DNA from: a virus
Direction: 5' to 3' (one strand)
Length of the DNA stretch: 63,019 nucleotides
IMG/VR virus record: IMGVR_UViG_3300037089_000131
Under the pieces are notes generated by a model. That model was not told the origin of the DNA. It saw only the letters and a program-made list of their open reading frames with translations, and ran no database searches. The position numbers and the translations under genes were made by a program. Below, one piece after another: positions 6,961 to 47,084 of the stretch (the stretch's first letter is position 1; every line of letters begins with the position of its first letter).

Positions 6961-8058
6961 ATGCAAGATTCAAAGGAAAAGGCATCGTTCACGGAGCAGT
7001 ACTTCGATTACAGCGGCGGCAGGGAGAACGCCCCCTTGCTCACCGTCATGGTCGGTCCTGCGGGCTCGGGCAAGAGCACCATCGCCAAGAGTGTGGTGAA
7101 TTGGGCTGCGGGCAAGACCGTGCGGCTGAACCGTGATACCCTTCGGGCTATGCTGTTTGCCGACTCCCCATGGAACCATGCGAAGGAAGATGTGGTTCGC
7201 AAGTACGAGGAAGAGGGCATTCGCTCGTTCCTTGGCATGGGTCTGAACGTCATCGTGGACGACACCAATTGCGTGCCCAGGACCCGCCAGAAGCTTGAGG
7301 AGATTGCCCGTGGGGCAAGGGTCAAGTTCTGCCTGACGGTCATGAACATCGACAAGGAAGAGTGTTTGCGGCGGAACGCCCTACGCACCGGCAAGGAGGT
7401 CGTCCCCGAGGAAGCCATCGACCAGCACTTCAAGCGGCTCCGGGAGAAGACCGTGCGGCCGTTCGGCTACGGGATGGAGGAATCCAACCGGGCACTGGAG
7501 GACTGGAGCGAGCTTAACGCCACCATCGCCGGGGGCAGGGACTTCCACGAGCGCCTTCCGGGCGCACCGTGGGTATTCTGCGACGTGGACGGCACGCTGG
7601 CGGAGAACGAGGGCGAGAGGAACCAGTTCGACGAGACCAAGGTGCTTCTGGACTCCTGCCGGGAGCCGGTGGCGGCATGGCTCCGGGGGCTGTACTCGAC
7701 CCATAACATCTGCATCCTCTCCGGTCGGCACGATACCTGCTGCAAGGACTCATGCGACTGGTTCGAGATGTACAAGATTCCCTTTGACATGTTCCTGATG
7801 CGGGGAGCGACGAACTTCGAGCACGACTACATCGTCAAGCGCAAGATTATGGAGACGGTCCTCCGGGTAATCCCCAAGGAGCGCATCGCCTTCATGGTTG
7901 ACGACCGCCCGCAGGTCTGCCGGATGTGGAAGAACGAGCTTGGACTCAAGGTCTACCCGGTCGGGGGAACCACCGACCATGGGGCGACCTGCACCTTCGT
8001 CCCCGAGAAGAAGGGCTGGAAGCACTGCCCGCAATGCGGGGCGCTGGAGGACTTCTGA
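6961..8058 (+). CDS. pnk: polynucleotide 5'-kinase/3'-phosphatase (T4 Pnkp-like)
   Basis: N-terminal P-loop GPAGSGKST followed by a C-terminal HAD-type DxDGT motif (FCDVDGTLAE); same domain order as T4 PseT. Confidence 0.8.
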   Translation: MQDSKEKASFTEQYFDYSGGRENAPLLTVMVGPAGSGKSTIAKSVVNWAAGKTVRLNRDTLRAMLFADSPWNHAKEDVVRKYEEEGIRSFLGMGLNVIVDDTNCVPRTRQKLEEIARGARVKFCLTVMNIDKEECLRRNALRTGKEVVPEEAIDQHFKRLREKTVRPFGYGMEESNRALEDWSELNATIAGGRDFHERLPGAPWVFCDVDGTLAENEGERNQFDETKVLLDSCREPVAAWLRGLYSTHNICILSGRHDTCCKDSCDWFEMYKIPFDMFLMRGATNFEHDYIVKRKIMETVLRVIPKERIAFMVDDRPQVCRMWKNELGLKVYPVGGTTDHGATCTFVPEKKGWKHCPQCGALEDF

Positions 8059-9141: not shown

Positions 9142-9399
9142 ATGAAGCCAAAGTTTAACATCCTGCACCGGGACTATCTCAAGCAGGCGATACCGACCTT
9201 CATGAACCAGTGCGAGGGCGGTTCCTGCGGTTGCACGGGCAAGGATATCAAGCCTCCAGACTCCTTCGAGCTTGGGGCGCTGGCGGTAATGCAGGGGCTA
9301 GACGACATCCATTACGCACCCTATCACCACCTGACCAAGGTGGACGTGCTCAGGGCAATTCAGAAGCGGTGCCAATTCCTCATCGACCTGGAGAAATAA
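9142..9399 (+). CDS. hypothetical protein
   Basis: Internal ATG (MKPKFNILH) after the previous stop with an AGGG RBS; CEGGSCGC motif. Confidence 0.4.
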   Translation: MKPKFNILHRDYLKQAIPTFMNQCEGGSCGCTGKDIKPPDSFELGALAVMQGLDDIHYAPYHHLTKVDVLRAIQKRCQFLIDLEK

Positions 9400-10667
9400 T
9401 GAAGCTGGAAAACCTGCTGAACATCGACAACCTTAACCGTCTGGTGACGGAGAGGTACATCGCCGTGCGCAAGCACCCGAGTCTGCCCCTGCGCATCTAC
9501 AACTACACCAGCGAGTGCATGTTCAAGAACATGTGGCCATATGAGGTCTGCGTCTGCCGGGGTCTCATCGTGGACGACAAGGACAACATCGTCAGCCGCC
9601 CCATCCCGAAGTTCTTCAACCTCGGGCAGTCAGGACCCTACATATTCCGCAACGCCCAAGGAAACTTGGAGGTTCGGGACGAGGTGTTTAGCGACCGCTT
9701 TCTCGTTGAGACATCGGAGTTCCTGCATGCCCCGCTCTCCATCACCCGCAAGCTGGACGGATGGGCGGGGATATCGTGGAACTACGAGGACAAGTGGGGG
9801 GTCGCCAGCCGTGGCTCCTTTGACTCGCCGGGGGCGCTCTATGCCACGGAGAAGTTCCAGAAGTTCGTCAAGTACACGGCAGTGGAGTTCATCCCCAAGG
9901 ACACTACCCTCTTCTTCGAGATAATCTCCAAGGAGACAAGGGTCGTCGTCCCCTATGACTTCGAGGGGTTGGTGCTCATCGCCGCCATCGACAACGACAC
10001 CGGGGAGGAGATGCGGCGGTCAGGCGTCGAGGCTCTCTACAAGGAAATCAACCAGTATGCCAAGGAACGCCCGTGGTGCCGGTTGGTGGAAGACTTCCCT
10101 ATGCGCTCGCTCGCCAAGTGCATGACGGACGACAGCATGACCGAGGAAGGGTATGTCGTCGCCATCCACCGGAATGGGCTTCCCCCTGTCCGGTCAAAGA
10201 TAAAGCTTGCCGAGTATTGCAGGCTGCATCGCATCCTGTGCGGCGTGACCCCGCAGAAGATTTGGCTGGAGCTTGCCGACCCGATGTCGTCTTGGGTCAA
10301 CCATGGCAGCAAGAAGGACTGGAAGACCGGCGAAATCAAGCATGACATGCAAATCCCGAGGGAGTTCGCCGACTGGGTGCTCGACTGGCACAAGCGCATA
10401 ACCGAGAGCTTCCACCAGAATCTTGTGGACGCCCTGCGTGTCGAGAAGGCGTTCGCCGACATGCGAACCGACGAGATGGCATGGAAGGAAATACAGGACA
10501 ACTGGGAGTATCTCAGGACAGCCGGTGGCTACTCCAAGGAAATCGTTAAGGTCGCCTCCAAGCTACATGGCGGCAAGGTGACGGAGGCATATGCCGACCT
10601 TTGGAACCTGGTGCGGCCGTTCGGCAGGGAGGAAGCTGCATTCTATTCGGAAGGGCAGGGTGAATGA
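9399..10667 (+). CDS. rnlA: RNA ligase (T4 RnlA/Rnl1-like)
   Basis: N-terminus YNYTSECMFKNMWPYEVCVCRGLIVDDKDNIVSRPIPKFFNL parallels T4 Rnl1 ([23 protein letters not shown]...ASRPMEKFFNL); nucleotidyltransferase motif I KLDG; TAATG overlap with the upstream stop. Confidence 0.8.
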   Translation: MKLENLLNIDNLNRLVTERYIAVRKHPSLPLRIYNYTSECMFKNMWPYEVCVCRGLIVDDKDNIVSRPIPKFFNLGQSGPYIFRNAQGNLEVRDEVFSDRFLVETSEFLHAPLSITRKLDGWAGISWNYEDKWGVASRGSFDSPGALYATEKFQKFVKYTAVEFIPKDTTLFFEIISKETRVVVPYDFEGLVLIAAIDNDTGEEMRRSGVEALYKEINQYAKERPWCRLVEDFPMRSLAKCMTDDSMTEEGYVVAIHRNGLPPVRSKIKLAEYCRLHRILCGVTPQKIWLELADPMSSWVNHGSKKDWKTGEIKHDMQIPREFADWVLDWHKRITESFHQNLVDALRVEKAFADMRTDEMAWKEIQDNWEYLRTAGGYSKEIVKVASKLHGGKVTEAYADLWNLVRPFGREEAAFYSEGQGE

Positions 10668-12672: not shown

Positions 12673-13287
12673 ATGACCCCAGAGTTACCGGTCGGGAACA
12701 ATAGCCGGTTCCTGTCCCACTTCATATTCGCTGATGTCAAGGAGGAGTCCCAAGATGTCTCCGACAGACTCGCCAAGATTCTGCGGAAGAGGTTCCCCAA
12801 CGACTCCTTCATGCAGATAGCCTGCCCGGAGTCCCTGGACAACTATGTCTTCGAGCCGAACACCCCCGGAGATTACCTCAACCTCAACCCATCCGCCTGC
12901 GCCAAGACCTTGTTCATCGGCATCGGAACGGGTGGTCTGGCCTCCTACAGCATTCAGCAAGACCCACGGTACCGTGGCGTCTCCGTGTTCGCCATCTCGC
13001 CGCCTCCGGGCATAAGCACCGTGGCGGGCGGTGGACCTCGGGTGGTCATCTACGGGTCCAAGTACGGCGTGTACGGGATTCCCTCATTCCTGTTCAGCGA
13101 GCGGGTCAAGCGGGGAGAGACCCCCAGCCAGCTATATGCCCTTCCCTCCCTCATCCACGGTCCCAGGCTGGCGCTCTACTGCATCGCCTATCTGGTCGGA
13201 AACTACATGAAGAAAGAGGACCTGTCCCAAGATATATTCACCGTTACAGGGGACAACCAAATCCATGCAGCGGAGGGCTTGGAATGA
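12673..13287 (+). CDS. hypothetical protein
   Basis: 204-aa ORF. Confidence 0.5.
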   Translation: MTPELPVGNNSRFLSHFIFADVKEESQDVSDRLAKILRKRFPNDSFMQIACPESLDNYVFEPNTPGDYLNLNPSACAKTLFIGIGTGGLASYSIQQDPRYRGVSVFAISPPPGISTVAGGGPRVVIYGSKYGVYGIPSFLFSERVKRGETPSQLYALPSLIHGPRLALYCIAYLVGNYMKKEDLSQDIFTVTGDNQIHAAEGLE

Positions 13288-41555: not shown

Positions 41556-42380
41556 ATGGAGTTCGTAAAACCGCAGGTCTACCACGTGGCGTCCACCCGC
41601 TGCCACAGCGATGCCATCATGGCATACCTAAAGGACATCGGTGCCGAGGAGTGGAGGACGGACCCCACCTCCGACGCCGAGTTGCTGCTGGAGGTCGCCG
41701 GGCGGGCGTGCTACCGGTCCTTCAAGGAAGGGCTTAACGCCAATGTGACCAAGGTCAGGGAGGGCAACGCCCTCTACCTCGGGAACATCCTGAACTCCAA
41801 GCACGGCAGCGTCCTTGAGCACGCCTACGACACCTACATCTTCCACAACATCAGCCGGGTGTTCACCCACGAGCTTGTCCGCCACCGGGCGGGCTGCGCC
41901 TACTCGCAGGAGAGCCTGCGCTTCGTGCGCCTCGACGAGCTACGGACATGGTACCCGACCATCCTCACCGACCTCCCGAACGGGGCATGGCCGGATGATA
42001 TGTCGAGGAACGACGCCCACCTGTGGCTCCAGAACAAGTGGCTGGAGGTCATCACCTACCTGGAGGGCGTGCAGAAGGAGACAGCGGCATTCTTCAACCT
42101 TGACCGCCTGCCCTTCGACCTGAAGAAGAAGCTGACCAGCGTCATGCGGCGGTGGGCACCGCTAGGATTGGCCACCACCATCATGATGACGGGCAACCAC
42201 CGGGTCTGGAGGCACCTCATCACCATGCGCACCAGCCGCCATGCCGAGGAGGAAATCCGCTTGGTGTTCAACCAAGTGTACAAGGAGCAGAAGACCTGCT
42301 ACCCGAGCCTCTATCAGGATGCCAAGGAAACCTTGGTGGACGGAATGCTGGAAATAACATTCGAGAACGAGAAGGTGTGA
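41556..42380 (+). CDS. thyX: FAD-dependent thymidylate synthase ThyX
   Basis: ThyX signature FTHELVRHRAGCAYSQES (RHRx7-8S) plus MTGNHRVWRHLITMR. Confidence 0.85.
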   Translation: MEFVKPQVYHVASTRCHSDAIMAYLKDIGAEEWRTDPTSDAELLLEVAGRACYRSFKEGLNANVTKVREGNALYLGNILNSKHGSVLEHAYDTYIFHNISRVFTHELVRHRAGCAYSQESLRFVRLDELRTWYPTILTDLPNGAWPDDMSRNDAHLWLQNKWLEVITYLEGVQKETAAFFNLDRLPFDLKKKLTSVMRRWAPLGLATTIMMTGNHRVWRHLITMRTSRHAEEEIRLVFNQVYKEQKTCYPSLYQDAKETLVDGMLEITFENEKV

Positions 42381-42693: not shown

Positions 42694-43347
42694 ATGGATT
42701 ACCAAAAAATTTACTATCAGCTTATAGACAAAGCTAAAAACAACCTTCTTCAGCCTGATGGATATTATGAATTTCACCACATACTCCCTCAATCCTTGGG
42801 TGGTGACTCCAAAAAAGACAACTTGGTCCAATTAACTGGCAAGCAACATTTCGTGGCACATCGTCTTCTAGCTAAGTTTACCGAAGGCAGAAACCGATGT
42901 AAGATGCTTCTAGCTTTGCATAGGTTCCTGCACAGTAAGAACTGTGAATTTCGTATAAATTCCAGAGAATATGAGTACATACGGCAGCAAGCCGCCATCG
43001 CTATAAGCATCCTGAACACAGGTAGGCAGTTTTCCGACAAGGCAAGAGAGAACATGTCCGCAGCACAACGAGAAAGATACTTGTCTGTTCCTACCCATTG
43101 GAGGGGAAGACATCATAGTAACAAGACTAAGAAAAAGATGCAGAAAGTTCAGGGCGGAGTACATAATCCCCAGTTTGGAAAGCCACGGACAGAGGATGAA
43201 AAACGGAGAATATCCGTAGCACTGAGAGGAAGAAAACTGTCTCCTGAACAGGTATTAGAAAGGTATGCTCGGCGTCATAGCACTGAAACAAAGCAGAAGA
43301 TTGGTCAAAGTATAAAGGAGTGGCATGTTAAGCGAAAAATGGGATAG
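42694..43347 (+). CDS. HNH homing endonuclease with NUMOD-like repeats
   Basis: YEFHHILPQSLGGDSKKDNLVQLTGKQHFVAHR core followed by C-terminal basic repeats. Confidence 0.75.
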   Translation: MDYQKIYYQLIDKAKNNLLQPDGYYEFHHILPQSLGGDSKKDNLVQLTGKQHFVAHRLLAKFTEGRNRCKMLLALHRFLHSKNCEFRINSREYEYIRQQAAIAISILNTGRQFSDKARENMSAAQRERYLSVPTHWRGRHHSNKTKKKMQKVQGGVHNPQFGKPRTEDEKRRISVALRGRKLSPEQVLERYARRHSTETKQKIGQSIKEWHVKRKMG

Positions 43348-43804
43348 GCGTTTCCTGGAACTTGCAGCGCATATAGCATCGTGGTCACGTGACCCAAGCA
43401 CTAAAACAGGGGCGGTAATCGTCCGCCCGAACAAGTCGGTCGTCGGCGTGGGCTTCAACGGCTTTCCGGTGGGGGCCAAGGATGACCCGGCGCTATACGC
43501 CGACCGGACGTACAAGTACGACCATGTGGTCCACTGCGAGATAAACGCCCTGCTCTTCGCCAACGAGGCGGTGAACGGGTGCTGCCTCTACACTTGGCCA
43601 TTTGCCTCGTGCATCCGCTGCGCCGTGCAGATGGTGCAGGCGGGCATCGCATTCTTCGTGTTCCCGCACCCGAGCGCCGACGCCCTGACCCGCTGGGCAG
43701 CCTCCTTCGACGCCACGAAGGGCTTCCTTGACGAATGCCATGTGCCTTGGCTGGAAATCGGCAACGCCGAGGACTACCGGATGATTCCTGCCAAGTTAGG
43801 ATAA
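43325..43804 (+). CDS. dCMP (deoxycytidylate) deaminase
   Basis: Zn-binding HCEINAL (H-x-E) and ASCIRCA (C-x-x-C). Confidence 0.8.
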   Translation: MLSEKWDRRFLELAAHIASWSRDPSTKTGAVIVRPNKSVVGVGFNGFPVGAKDDPALYADRTYKYDHVVHCEINALLFANEAVNGCCLYTWPFASCIRCAVQMVQAGIAFFVFPHPSADALTRWAASFDATKGFLDECHVPWLEIGNAEDYRMIPAKLG

Positions 43805-46117: not shown

Positions 46118-46378
46118 ATGGATGCCACGATTGCCCTCATCGGGGGGTTTGTAGTATTCTTCCTCGGTCTGTTCTCCATGATGTGCATCACCACATGGAT
46201 AGAACGCCGGGATGACGAGCAAAACCGCCAGCATACGCTGGAGATGGCCAAACTCGGTCTGGTCTGGGACGACGACAACGAAAGGTGGGTGCCAATTGGG
46301 ACGGGAAAAGAACGCACTGACATCGAGGATGAAGAACAACTACGAACTGAGGTGCCGCAGGTTCCTCCCGAGGCGTAG
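46118..46378 (+). CDS. small membrane protein
   Basis: Hydrophobic N-terminus LIGGFVVFFLGLFSMMCITTW. Confidence 0.4.
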   Translation: MDATIALIGGFVVFFLGLFSMMCITTWIERRDDEQNRQHTLEMAKLGLVWDDDNERWVPIGTGKERTDIEDEEQLRTEVPQVPPEA

Positions 46379-47084
46379 CTATGTCATCGTCCGGGTGGAC
46401 GGCAGGAGCTTCCACACGTGGACCCGTGGGCTTGAGAAGCCCTACGACAAGCACCTGCTGGACGCCATGGATGCTACCGCCTTGGAGCTTTGCGGGCAGG
46501 TGGCGGGCTGCAAGCTGGGATATGTCCAGTCGGACGAGATAAGCCTCGTGCTGACGGACTTCGACACCATCGAGACCGAGGCGTGGTTCGACAACTGCCA
46601 GAACAAGCTGGAGTCCATCACGGCGAGCATCGCCACGATGGCCTTCAACCTGCACATCGTGAGCACCAGGGATGCCCGGACGGACGCCTGCCTGAACGAC
46701 CCCGGCTCGGTCCCGGAGCTATACCGGCGATGCCCGGATGCCACCTTCGACTCTCGTGCCTTCGTCATCCCCGACTATGTGGAGGTGGAGAACTACCTCA
46801 TCGACCGGCAGAAGGACGCCATGCGCAACTCCGTGACGATGCTGGCCAGCAAGTATGCCAGCCACAAGAAGCTTAACGGGGTGACTCTTACCGACCGTTT
46901 GGCGCTCATCAAGGCGGCAGGGGACAACTGGGATAAGCACTCTGTCCGGTTCAAGCAGGGAGGGGTAGTGTACAATACCGGTGGGGAGTGGGTCGTCAGC
47001 GAAGAACCCAAGCCCTTCACCAAGAACCGTGAGTGGCTCAGGCTGGTAATCCCCCGGCACTGGGAGGAAGAACCTGCGGCATAG
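46329..47084 (+). CDS. Thg1-like protein (tRNA-His guanylyltransferase family 3'-5' nucleotidyltransferase)
   Basis: SYVIVRVDGRSFHTWTRGLEKPYD...GYVQSDEISLVL aligns with yeast Thg1 [26 protein letters not shown]...YGQSDEYSFVF; size (~250 aa) fits TLPs. Confidence 0.65.
   Translation: MKNNYELRCRRFLPRRSYVIVRVDGRSFHTWTRGLEKPYDKHLLDAMDATALELCGQVAGCKLGYVQSDEISLVLTDFDTIETEAWFDNCQNKLESITASIATMAFNLHIVSTRDARTDACLNDPGSVPELYRRCPDATFDSRAFVIPDYVEVENYLIDRQKDAMRNSVTMLASKYASHKKLNGVTLTDRLALIKAAGDNWDKHSVRFKQGGVVYNTGGEWVVSEEPKPFTKNREWLRLVIPRHWEEEPAA

Follow-up and report, generated by a model that had tools for sequence, protein, structure and literature searches.

Our analysis of a 63,019-nucleotide stretch of viral DNA (IMG/VR record IMGVR_UViG_3300037089_000131, hereafter the window) identified a gene for a Thg1-like protein (TLP), a 3′-5′ nucleotidyltransferase, in a fragment of a jumbo-phage-like genome. 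As the initial annotation had proposed, comparison with known relatives confirmed that this open reading frame (ORF) encodes a Thg1-family protein with a complete active site, and matches to Pfam, to PHROG, to the TLP of Bacillus thuringiensis (BtTLP) and to known folds all agree on this assignment. We consider general tRNA 5′-end maintenance during infection, including the restoration of the G at position -1 (G-1), to be its most likely role, with a probability of roughly 0.6, because the gene shares the fragment with at least 20 tRNA genes, a polynucleotide kinase-phosphatase (Pnkp), an Rnl1-type RNA ligase and an RlaP-family nucleotidyltransferase.

Family, active site and subtype of the protein

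The protein matched the Pfam family PF04446 (Thg1) with 95.1 bits against a gathering cut-off of 29.2 (E=4.2e-27; profile positions 7-130 of 130) and the PHROG family phrog_4717, ‘tRNA-His guanylyltransferase’, with E=1.8e-61. PF14413 (Thg1C), the second Pfam family that the initial annotation had named for comparison, was not reported in the Pfam search even at E≤1; BtTLP and the PHROG profile could still be aligned with the C-terminal half of the protein, and a search of NCBIfam gave no model match. The best solved relative is BtTLP (PDB 4kgk), with E=3e-37 and 131 bits over residues 4-237, and matches to the Candida, yeast and human Thg1 proteins and to the Methanosarcina TLP were far weaker, those to eukaryotic Thg1 reaching 47 bits at most. 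An AlphaFold2 model, built with 34 homologues, had a pLDDT of 87.5 and a pTM of 0.86. When this predicted structure was compared with the PDB using Foldseek, the top 32 matches were all Thg1 or TLP structures, led by BtTLP (4kgm_B; E=6.5e-22, TM 0.82/0.89), and the matches after these were noise (E>0.02).

Residue equivalences were taken from a HMMER alignment to BtTLP, in which the roles of the catalytic and nucleoside triphosphate (NTP)-binding residues have been described (PMC3701042), and invariance was read from an alignment of the 34 homologues, which are 48-82% identical. The catalytic carboxylates, whose loss would have argued against the proposed function, are all kept: the metal-binding D24, D69 and E70 correspond to D30, D75 and E76 of BtTLP (D29, D76 and E77 of the human enzyme) and are invariant in the homologues. 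Residues for 5′ activation (K37 and S68, equivalent to BtTLP K43 and S74) and for NTP binding (R22, R143, R160 and E6, equivalent to R28, R131, R147 and E12) are also present, as is the backbone-contact segment S27-F28-H29 (H33-F34-H35 in BtTLP). Across the homologues, E6, R22, F28, H29, S68, R143, R160, D163 and N167 are invariant in addition to the three carboxylates, and K37 varies between K and R. D163 and N167 lie on a helix that faces the incoming nucleotide, comparable to the D150/N154 helix of DdiThg1 (PMC12632743). Overall, these residues predict a catalytically competent, two-metal palm-domain enzyme of the bacterial type.

TLPs and Thg1 proteins can be told apart by the KPXD loop, whose X is an aromatic residue in TLPs and N in Thg1 proteins (PMC12632743). 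In the window protein this loop is K37-P38-Y39-D40 (KPYD), with an aromatic residue at X, and the sequence AMRNSVT aligns where eukaryotic Thg1 carries HINNLYN (CHINNLY in Candida), a motif that is likewise absent in all 34 homologues. With both HINNLYN and KPND absent, the protein is assigned by its motifs to the TLP subtype and not to eukaryotic-type Thg1. The JGI annotation names exactly this protein (P0001) ‘tRNA(His) guanylyltransferase’; because the KPYD loop and the missing HINNLYN point to a TLP, this name overstates current knowledge, and the protein should not be classed with the true tRNA-His guanylyltransferases of the eukaryotic kind. The subtype motifs predict a 3′-5′ nucleotidyltransferase limited to Watson-Crick-templated addition, and from these motifs only, a kinetic preference for 5′-truncated tRNAs, as in BtTLP, may be expected.

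The likeness to BtTLP (4kgk/4kgm) extends over the full length, at about 37% identity, and comprises the same carboxylates, activation residues and NTP-binding arginines, a TLP-type KPxD loop and the lack of HINNLYN in either protein; templated 3′-5′ addition and the placing of G-1 opposite C73 would be expected to be shared as well. In contrast to BtTLP, the window protein is phage-encoded, has about 18 additional residues inserted behind the long helix (roughly 110-127) and ends in a short acidic C-terminal tail. The eukaryotic Thg1 proteins (yeast, human and Candida; PDB 3otb, 3wbz and 5xox) share the fold and the catalytic carboxylates and add G-1 to tRNA-His; however, they place a non-templated G opposite A73 and recognise the GUG anticodon, for which they need the HINNLYN and KPND motifs that are missing here.

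The ORF from ATG to stop, with 251 codons for amino acids, lies exactly at 46329-47084 on the plus strand, nested in a longer ORF that opens at 46212, and its translation contains the blocks YVIVRVDGRSFHTW, KPYD and GYVQSDEISLVL. The coding region probably begins 33 nt further upstream, at a TTG codon, because the in-frame peptide ahead of the ATG, GREKNALTSR-MKNNYEL, resembles the N-termini of homologues (MGKAKNSLTSR-MKENYEL in P0007 and KDALGDRMK in most others) and because a Shine-Dalgarno-like run, GAAAGGTGGG, is found at 46280-46289, ahead of this TTG. At ATG 46329, GAGG directly abuts the codon. A small ORF in another frame (46118-46378, plus strand, 86 aa), which has a hydrophobic N-terminal segment, overlaps the TTG start by about 80 nt; either this ORF and the TLP gene overlap, or one of the two starts differs.

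A proposed role in tRNA maintenance and its alternatives

Based on the known chemistry of the family (PMC3061083, PMC3701042, PMC4820378), the TLP would activate the 5′-monophosphate of a tRNA using ATP or GTP, then add, in the 3′-5′ direction, the nucleotide that forms a Watson-Crick pair with the base facing it on the 3′ strand of the acceptor stem, and repeat this addition until the stem is complete. In this way, tRNAs of the phage or the host that have lost 5′ nucleotides could be rebuilt in the infected cell. As a special case, G-1 would be placed opposite C73 on any tRNA-His without it, among them the product that RNase P makes from the second tRNA-His gene of the window. BtTLP favours 5′-truncated tRNAs 5-160-fold and also acts on tRNAs other than tRNA-His (PMC3061083). 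The initial annotation had offered two functions for the enzyme, the maturation of the phage tRNA-His and the repair of tRNA 5′ ends; of these we infer the second to be the better-supported reading, and the comparison of tRNA-His genes given below revealed no specific link to the first.

The window encodes further enzymes of RNA repair (Table 1). As in phage T4, which mends its tRNAs with Pnkp and Rnl1 after attack by the anticodon nuclease PrrC, both a Pnkp and an Rnl1-family ligase are present; unlike the window, T4 has no TLP, and its pathway mends breaks in the anticodon loop and not 5′-terminal losses. The TLP would extend this healing-and-sealing kit with a step that restores 5′ nucleotides, a coupling suggested by the co-occurrence of the genes. 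In other viral contigs, genes for RNA ligase, RlaP, NADAR and HD proteins were repeatedly found in the vicinity of the TLP gene. At distances of up to 10 kb from viral TLP genes, tRNA density was 0.96 per 10 kb compared to 0.58 in comparison loci, and 25 of 81 loci near a viral TLP gene held tRNAs, compared to 8 of 66 in this comparison set, which is not a designed control. Together, enzymes for healing (Pnkp), sealing (Rnl1) and nucleotide restoration (RlaP and TLP) and a large tRNA set support the idea of near-complete tRNA maintenance in jumbo phages, probably directed against host attacks on tRNAs.

Table 1. Positions of the TLP gene, of RNA-repair genes and of tRNA genes in the window.
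Feature	Position	Strand	Evidence and remarks
TLP coding region	46296..47084	+	ATG start 46329 (251 aa); probable TTG start 46296 (262 aa); Pfam, PHROG, PDB and fold matches
T4-type polynucleotide kinase-phosphatase (Pnkp), RNA end-healing	6961..8058	+	phrog_505 E=5e-65; Pfam AAA_33 kinase and HAD_PNKP phosphatase
Rnl1-family RNA ligase, end-sealing	9210..10667	+	phrog_562 E=7e-44; Pfam RNA_lig_T4_1 E=8e-12
RlaP-family Pol-beta nucleotidyltransferase, RNA-repair-associated	56672..57637	+	Pfam PF10127 E=1.6e-10; synteny in L006/L007
tRNA cluster 1 (Tyr x2, Leu x6, Ser x3), potential TLP clients	31163..33123	+	all encode CCA
tRNA cluster 2 (His x2, Trp, Arg x3, Asn, Lys x2)	61546..62733	+	runs toward contig end; relatives continue, at least 16-26 tRNAs
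tRNA-His(GTG) no. 1	61546-61620 (G-1 at 61545)	+	ARAGORN; Rfam 71.2 bits; acceptor GAGACGG/CCGTCTC
tRNA-His(GTG) no. 2	61743-61817 (T at -1, 61742)	+	ARAGORN; Rfam 65.3 bits; acceptor GTGGCCG/CGGTCAC

Several observations weigh against a repair function. The Pnkp and Rnl1 genes lie 36-39 kb from the TLP gene in the window, and all-against-all clustering of the ORFs within ±10 kb of 82 viral TLP genes revealed no conserved operon partner. The best true neighbour family, a GIY-YIG homing endonuclease, was present at 12 of the 82 loci, followed by NUDIX proteins (10), dCMP deaminase (9), an HD-like family (9), HD_4 (7), RNA ligase (7), NADAR (7) and RlaP (6), and RNA-repair genes were thus found near the TLP gene at no more than 7 loci. 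Two apparent families that had ranked above these consisted of shadow ORFs antisense to the TLP gene and were removed. Furthermore, the acceptor stems of the 20 tRNAs of the window are well paired and give no sign of an inherent need for 5′ editing: every one pairs at acceptor positions 1-3, five of them with a G1-U72 wobble, and 5′ editing of mismatched acceptor stems in the mitochondrial style was rejected for this phage on these grounds. All 20 also encode CCA, and several are spaced only 5-8 nt apart. We know of no anti-phage nuclease that cuts tRNA 5′ ends. The source of the 5′-end damage is therefore hypothetical, which is the weakest link of the repair reading, and the physiological role of the bacterial TLPs themselves is still unsettled (PMC3061083). 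Apart from these points, one of the tRNA-Tyr genes (31405-31489) barely reaches the Rfam threshold for tRNA-Sec (47.6 vs 47 bits), probably just by virtue of its long variable arm.

A function outside tRNA metabolism, such as the 5′-adenylylation or guanylylation (a cap-like activation) or extension of phage or host transcripts, or a nucleotide-based counter-defence, would fit the lack of a conserved operon partner and the immediate neighbours of the gene, which are genes of nucleotide metabolism (ThyX, dCMP deaminase, NUDIX and a dGTP-diphosphohydrolase-like protein) and not tRNA genes. Moreover, TLPs accumulate App- and Gpp-activated 5′ ends in vitro (PMC3061083), and Thg1 has been discussed among non-canonical capping enzymes (PMC8131947). 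We nevertheless regard such a function as improbable: all characterised members of the family act on tRNAs or tRNA-like acceptor stems, the residues that position the templated NTP are all conserved here, and the TLP phages that were examined or described carry many tRNAs. Least probable of all, and very unlikely, is that the gene is an inactive or decaying passenger taken from a host. Nothing specific favours this view, and the intact ORF with its conserved catalytic residues, the syntenic position that relatives at 59-82% identity keep in several jumbo-phage contigs, and the remoteness of the nearest cellular homologues all speak against it. General maintenance of tRNA 5′ ends has its main competitor in a role dedicated to tRNA-His.

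tRNA-His genes with and without a templated G-1

The initial annotation had described two tRNA-His genes that differ in whether G-1 is templated, and our reading of the sequence agrees, with G and T, respectively, at position -1 (Table 1). Both genes have C73, an encoded CCA and an acceptor stem in which seven of seven positions pair. A register that would make G61743 the G-1 of the second gene was ruled out, as it leaves only six acceptor pairs and displaces U8. If RNase P keeps the G-1, as in bacteria, the first tRNA-His would need no G-1 addition, and the second is a candidate substrate for the templated reaction. BtTLP adds a templated G-1 to C73 tRNA-His with a kcat/KM of 5500 M-1 s-1, which equals the value for yeast Thg1 and its own substrate and exceeds that of BtTLP on A73 tRNA-His 50-fold (PMC3061083). 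Because of this activity, addition of G-1 to the second tRNA-His by the window TLP is biochemically plausible, but it is not specifically supported. The pair with and without a templated G-1 represents a natural substrate pair for an assay.

A dedicated role would assume that, as U-1 and C73 do not form a pair, RNase P cuts the precursor of the second tRNA-His at +1, and that the selected job of the TLP is to place G-1 opposite C73 for a host histidyl-tRNA synthetase (HisRS) that depends on G-1 and C73. Besides the T(-1)/C73/CCA configuration of this gene and the efficiency of BtTLP, which acts on such a substrate as well as yeast Thg1 does on its own, the related TLP-encoding contig L001/L011 carries a tRNA-His-like gene (12749-12823 in L011) with the same acceptor stem and T at -1. 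It is the sole tRNA-His seen there and was missed by ARAGORN because of an odd D arm. A tRNA-His without G-1 also occurs in Bacillus phage BCP78 and in the TLP contig L134, where the tRNA gene has C at -1 and is some 2 kb away from that of the TLP. However, the sister phages L002/L003 retain the TLP, yet their one tRNA-His, at the position of the first gene of the window, has a templated G-1 and C73 (L009, 13527-13600), and since the first tRNA-His of the window encodes G-1, the phage would not depend on the second.

Our comparison across viral contigs likewise did not favour such a dedicated role. TLP-encoding contigs contained ten distinct tRNA-His genes with G(-1) (L009/10, L089, L102, two each in L122 and L123, L125, L209 and the first gene of the window) and four without (the second gene of the window, L011, L134 and BCP78). 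A random sample of viral tRNA-His genes, obtained from IMG/VR by a pattern scan and read in a register anchored at the T loop, since ARAGORN sometimes shifts tRNA-His by one base, contained 15 genes with and 18 without G(-1) (18/33), or 12 and 11 among those with C73. The difference between 10:4 and 15:18 is not significant (Fisher p=0.12) and goes in the wrong direction, in a sample whose contigs were taken regardless of TLP status. Moreover, T(-1)/C73 tRNA-His genes are found in the GenBank phages slur08 (T4-like), Cronobacter CR9, Mycobacterium Tonenili and Gordonia Sixama (L275-L278); the groups of the first three gave no TLP hit and Sixama is not among the hosts or records listed for TLP hits, a TLP-negative status that follows from group counts and not from the individual records.

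The Caulobacter phages point in the same direction, as they carry TLP genes and the tRNA-His of their host lacks G-1 (PMC3064791). In the TLP-encoding Caulobacter phage CcrPW, the tRNA-His (L359, 9941-10015, plus strand) has A(-1), a U1/U72 mismatch and A73 and thereby resembles the host-like alpha-proteobacterial identity set without G-1. Brevundimonas, Sinorhizobium and Ruegeria hosts likewise have tRNA-His without G-1. The BCP78 gene (L173, 1047-1118, minus strand) has A(-1), C1:G72 and A73 and no encoded CCA. Based on these counts, on the groups free of TLP hits that carry T(-1)/C73 genes and on the Caulobacter phages, the missing templated G-1 is a common trait of phage tRNA-His in general and not a signature of TLP phages. 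We therefore rejected compensation for G-1-less tRNA-His as a specific explanation of the TLP and consider it rather unlikely that the gene was selected for this task. Slightly less doubtful, although still clearly on the unlikely side, is the existence in this phage of a tRNA-His identity pathway of its own, in which host RNase P would trim the second tRNA-His (U-1/C73) to +1 and the TLP would then supply the templated G-1. If true, this would be a post-transcriptional G-1 route in the archaeal and eukaryotic style inside a bacterium, and many phage tRNA-His without a templated G-1 would rely on such enzymes or on an unknown alternative.

Independently of the TLP, many phage tRNA-His(GTG) genes keep C73 without a templated G-1, usually with T(-1) (L275-L278, and among the IMG/VR loci L154-L273, e.g. 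L167, L198, L217 and L220). A 322-kb contig (L190; IMGVR_UViG_3300031576_000001) carries 38 tRNA genes within about 10 kb, including a tRNA-His with the acceptor stem of the second gene of the window and T at -1, but with T73 and without CCA. In the window, the second tRNA-His gene is separated from a tRNA-Arg(ccg) gene by a non-coding stretch (61818-62106), the core of which (approximately 61850-61895) reads GGGACCTAAAAAGTAGCCGGGAGTCATGACCCGGTGAAACCC. This core is conserved at 40 of 42 positions at the same place in a related jumbo-phage contig (L011, approximately 12995-13060) and contains a stable CCGGG/CCCGG hairpin, and a folding energy of -103 kcal/mol (z = -2.2) was computed for the 289-nt region. 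An Rfam scan of this conserved element gave only sub-threshold noise; it may represent a small RNA or serve in processing or regulation.

The jumbo-phage lineage and TLPs of other phages

The window has a GC content of 57%, nearly all of its genes on the plus strand and 20 tRNA genes, and no DNA-level match was found among GenBank phages. The nearest relatives of its TLP are all metagenomic and 59-82% identical; three of them come from viral contigs in IMG/VR with lengths of 157, 238 and 317 kb, and a fourth from a 364-kb contig. The closest relatives with shared gene order and dozens of tRNAs, at 59-61% identity, come from viral contigs of 157-364 kb. The conserved order comprises a major-vault-protein-like gene on the opposite strand, a nucleoside deoxyribosyltransferase-like gene, NUDIX, ThyX, dCMP deaminase, the TLP and a dGTP-diphosphohydrolase-like gene, and RlaP follows further downstream, in synteny with the RlaP genes that lie about 8 kb downstream of the TLP gene in L006/L007. 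The relatives also share the upstream Tyr/Leu/Ser tRNA block, and their downstream block of 16-26 tRNAs opens around His, Arg, Asn and Lys as in the window. From this conserved gene order and the tRNA blocks shared with large viral contigs, we conclude that the window is a fragment of a jumbo-phage-like genome. Cellular homologues of the TLP, from Armatimonadota, Acidobacteriota, Bacteroidota and Actinomycetota, are only about 40-50% identical. For this reason, a recent capture of the gene from a host was rejected, and the gene belongs to an established, old phage lineage.

TLP genes are also widespread in other phages, contrary to the statement of the initial annotation that virus-encoded TLPs are rarely described. 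Searches with tblastn revealed a homologue in each of 164 phage records of GenBank, nearly full-length in 137 of them and mostly annotated as tRNA-His guanylyltransferase, and a pattern-limited scan of IMG/VR found at least 381 viral stretches that encode a TLP. Hosts of the GenBank phages include Bacillus (46), Prevotella with its Lak megaphages (15), Caulobacter (13) and Mycobacterium (11); further examples are phages of Erwinia, Brevundimonas, Vibrio, Aeromonas, Burkholderia and Xanthomonas, Pseudomonas phage 201phi2-1, Sinorhizobium phage phiM12 and others. These phages are large, and those examined or described are tRNA-rich, with 18 tRNAs in BCP78 (in L173) and 20 in Bc431v3. Besides the existence of a PHROG family, the gene was noted in the genome paper of Bc431v3 in 2013 (PMC3601020), and a survey of jumbo phages in 2021 (PMC7824862) listed Thg1 with the enzymes of RNA repair, as one that restores 5′ nucleotides.

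The annotated phage genes of PHROG 4717 (e.g. in Bacillus phages Bc431v3/BCP78, Xanthomonas phage XacN1, Caulobacter phage CcrColossus, Lak megaphages and Pseudomonas phage 201phi2-1) belong to the same family as the window gene, with 30-41% identity over 75-98% of the protein in tblastn; the phages are mostly large, several are tRNA-rich, and the literature already reads these genes as tRNA-modifying or RNA-repair genes. The window protein differs in coming from a separate lineage of uncultured jumbo phages, with at most 41% protein identity. The gene family, its occurrence in phages and the proposed repair role are hence already on record, to which the window protein adds this separate lineage. 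Our literature searches returned genome-annotation mentions and comparative surveys only, and no biochemical study of any phage TLP. To our knowledge, no phage TLP has been characterised biochemically so far, so that any member, this protein included, would be a sensible choice for studying the use of reverse polymerisation to a virus.

The gene block around the TLP has two further features. An 823-aa ORF on the minus strand (33461-35932) matches domains of the major vault protein (MVP_shoulder, E=1.5e-23; Vault_3, E=7e-11) and adjoins the same gene block in the related jumbo-phage contigs L006 and L007; a vault homologue in a phage is unusual. In addition, a homing endonuclease gene (42694-43347; phrog_655, E=6e-45) is located between the genes for a ThyX-like thymidylate synthase (41556-42380) and dCMP deaminase (43325-43804). 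The latter two genes adjoin directly in L006/L007, and the arrangement in the window looks like the insertion of a mobile endonuclease.

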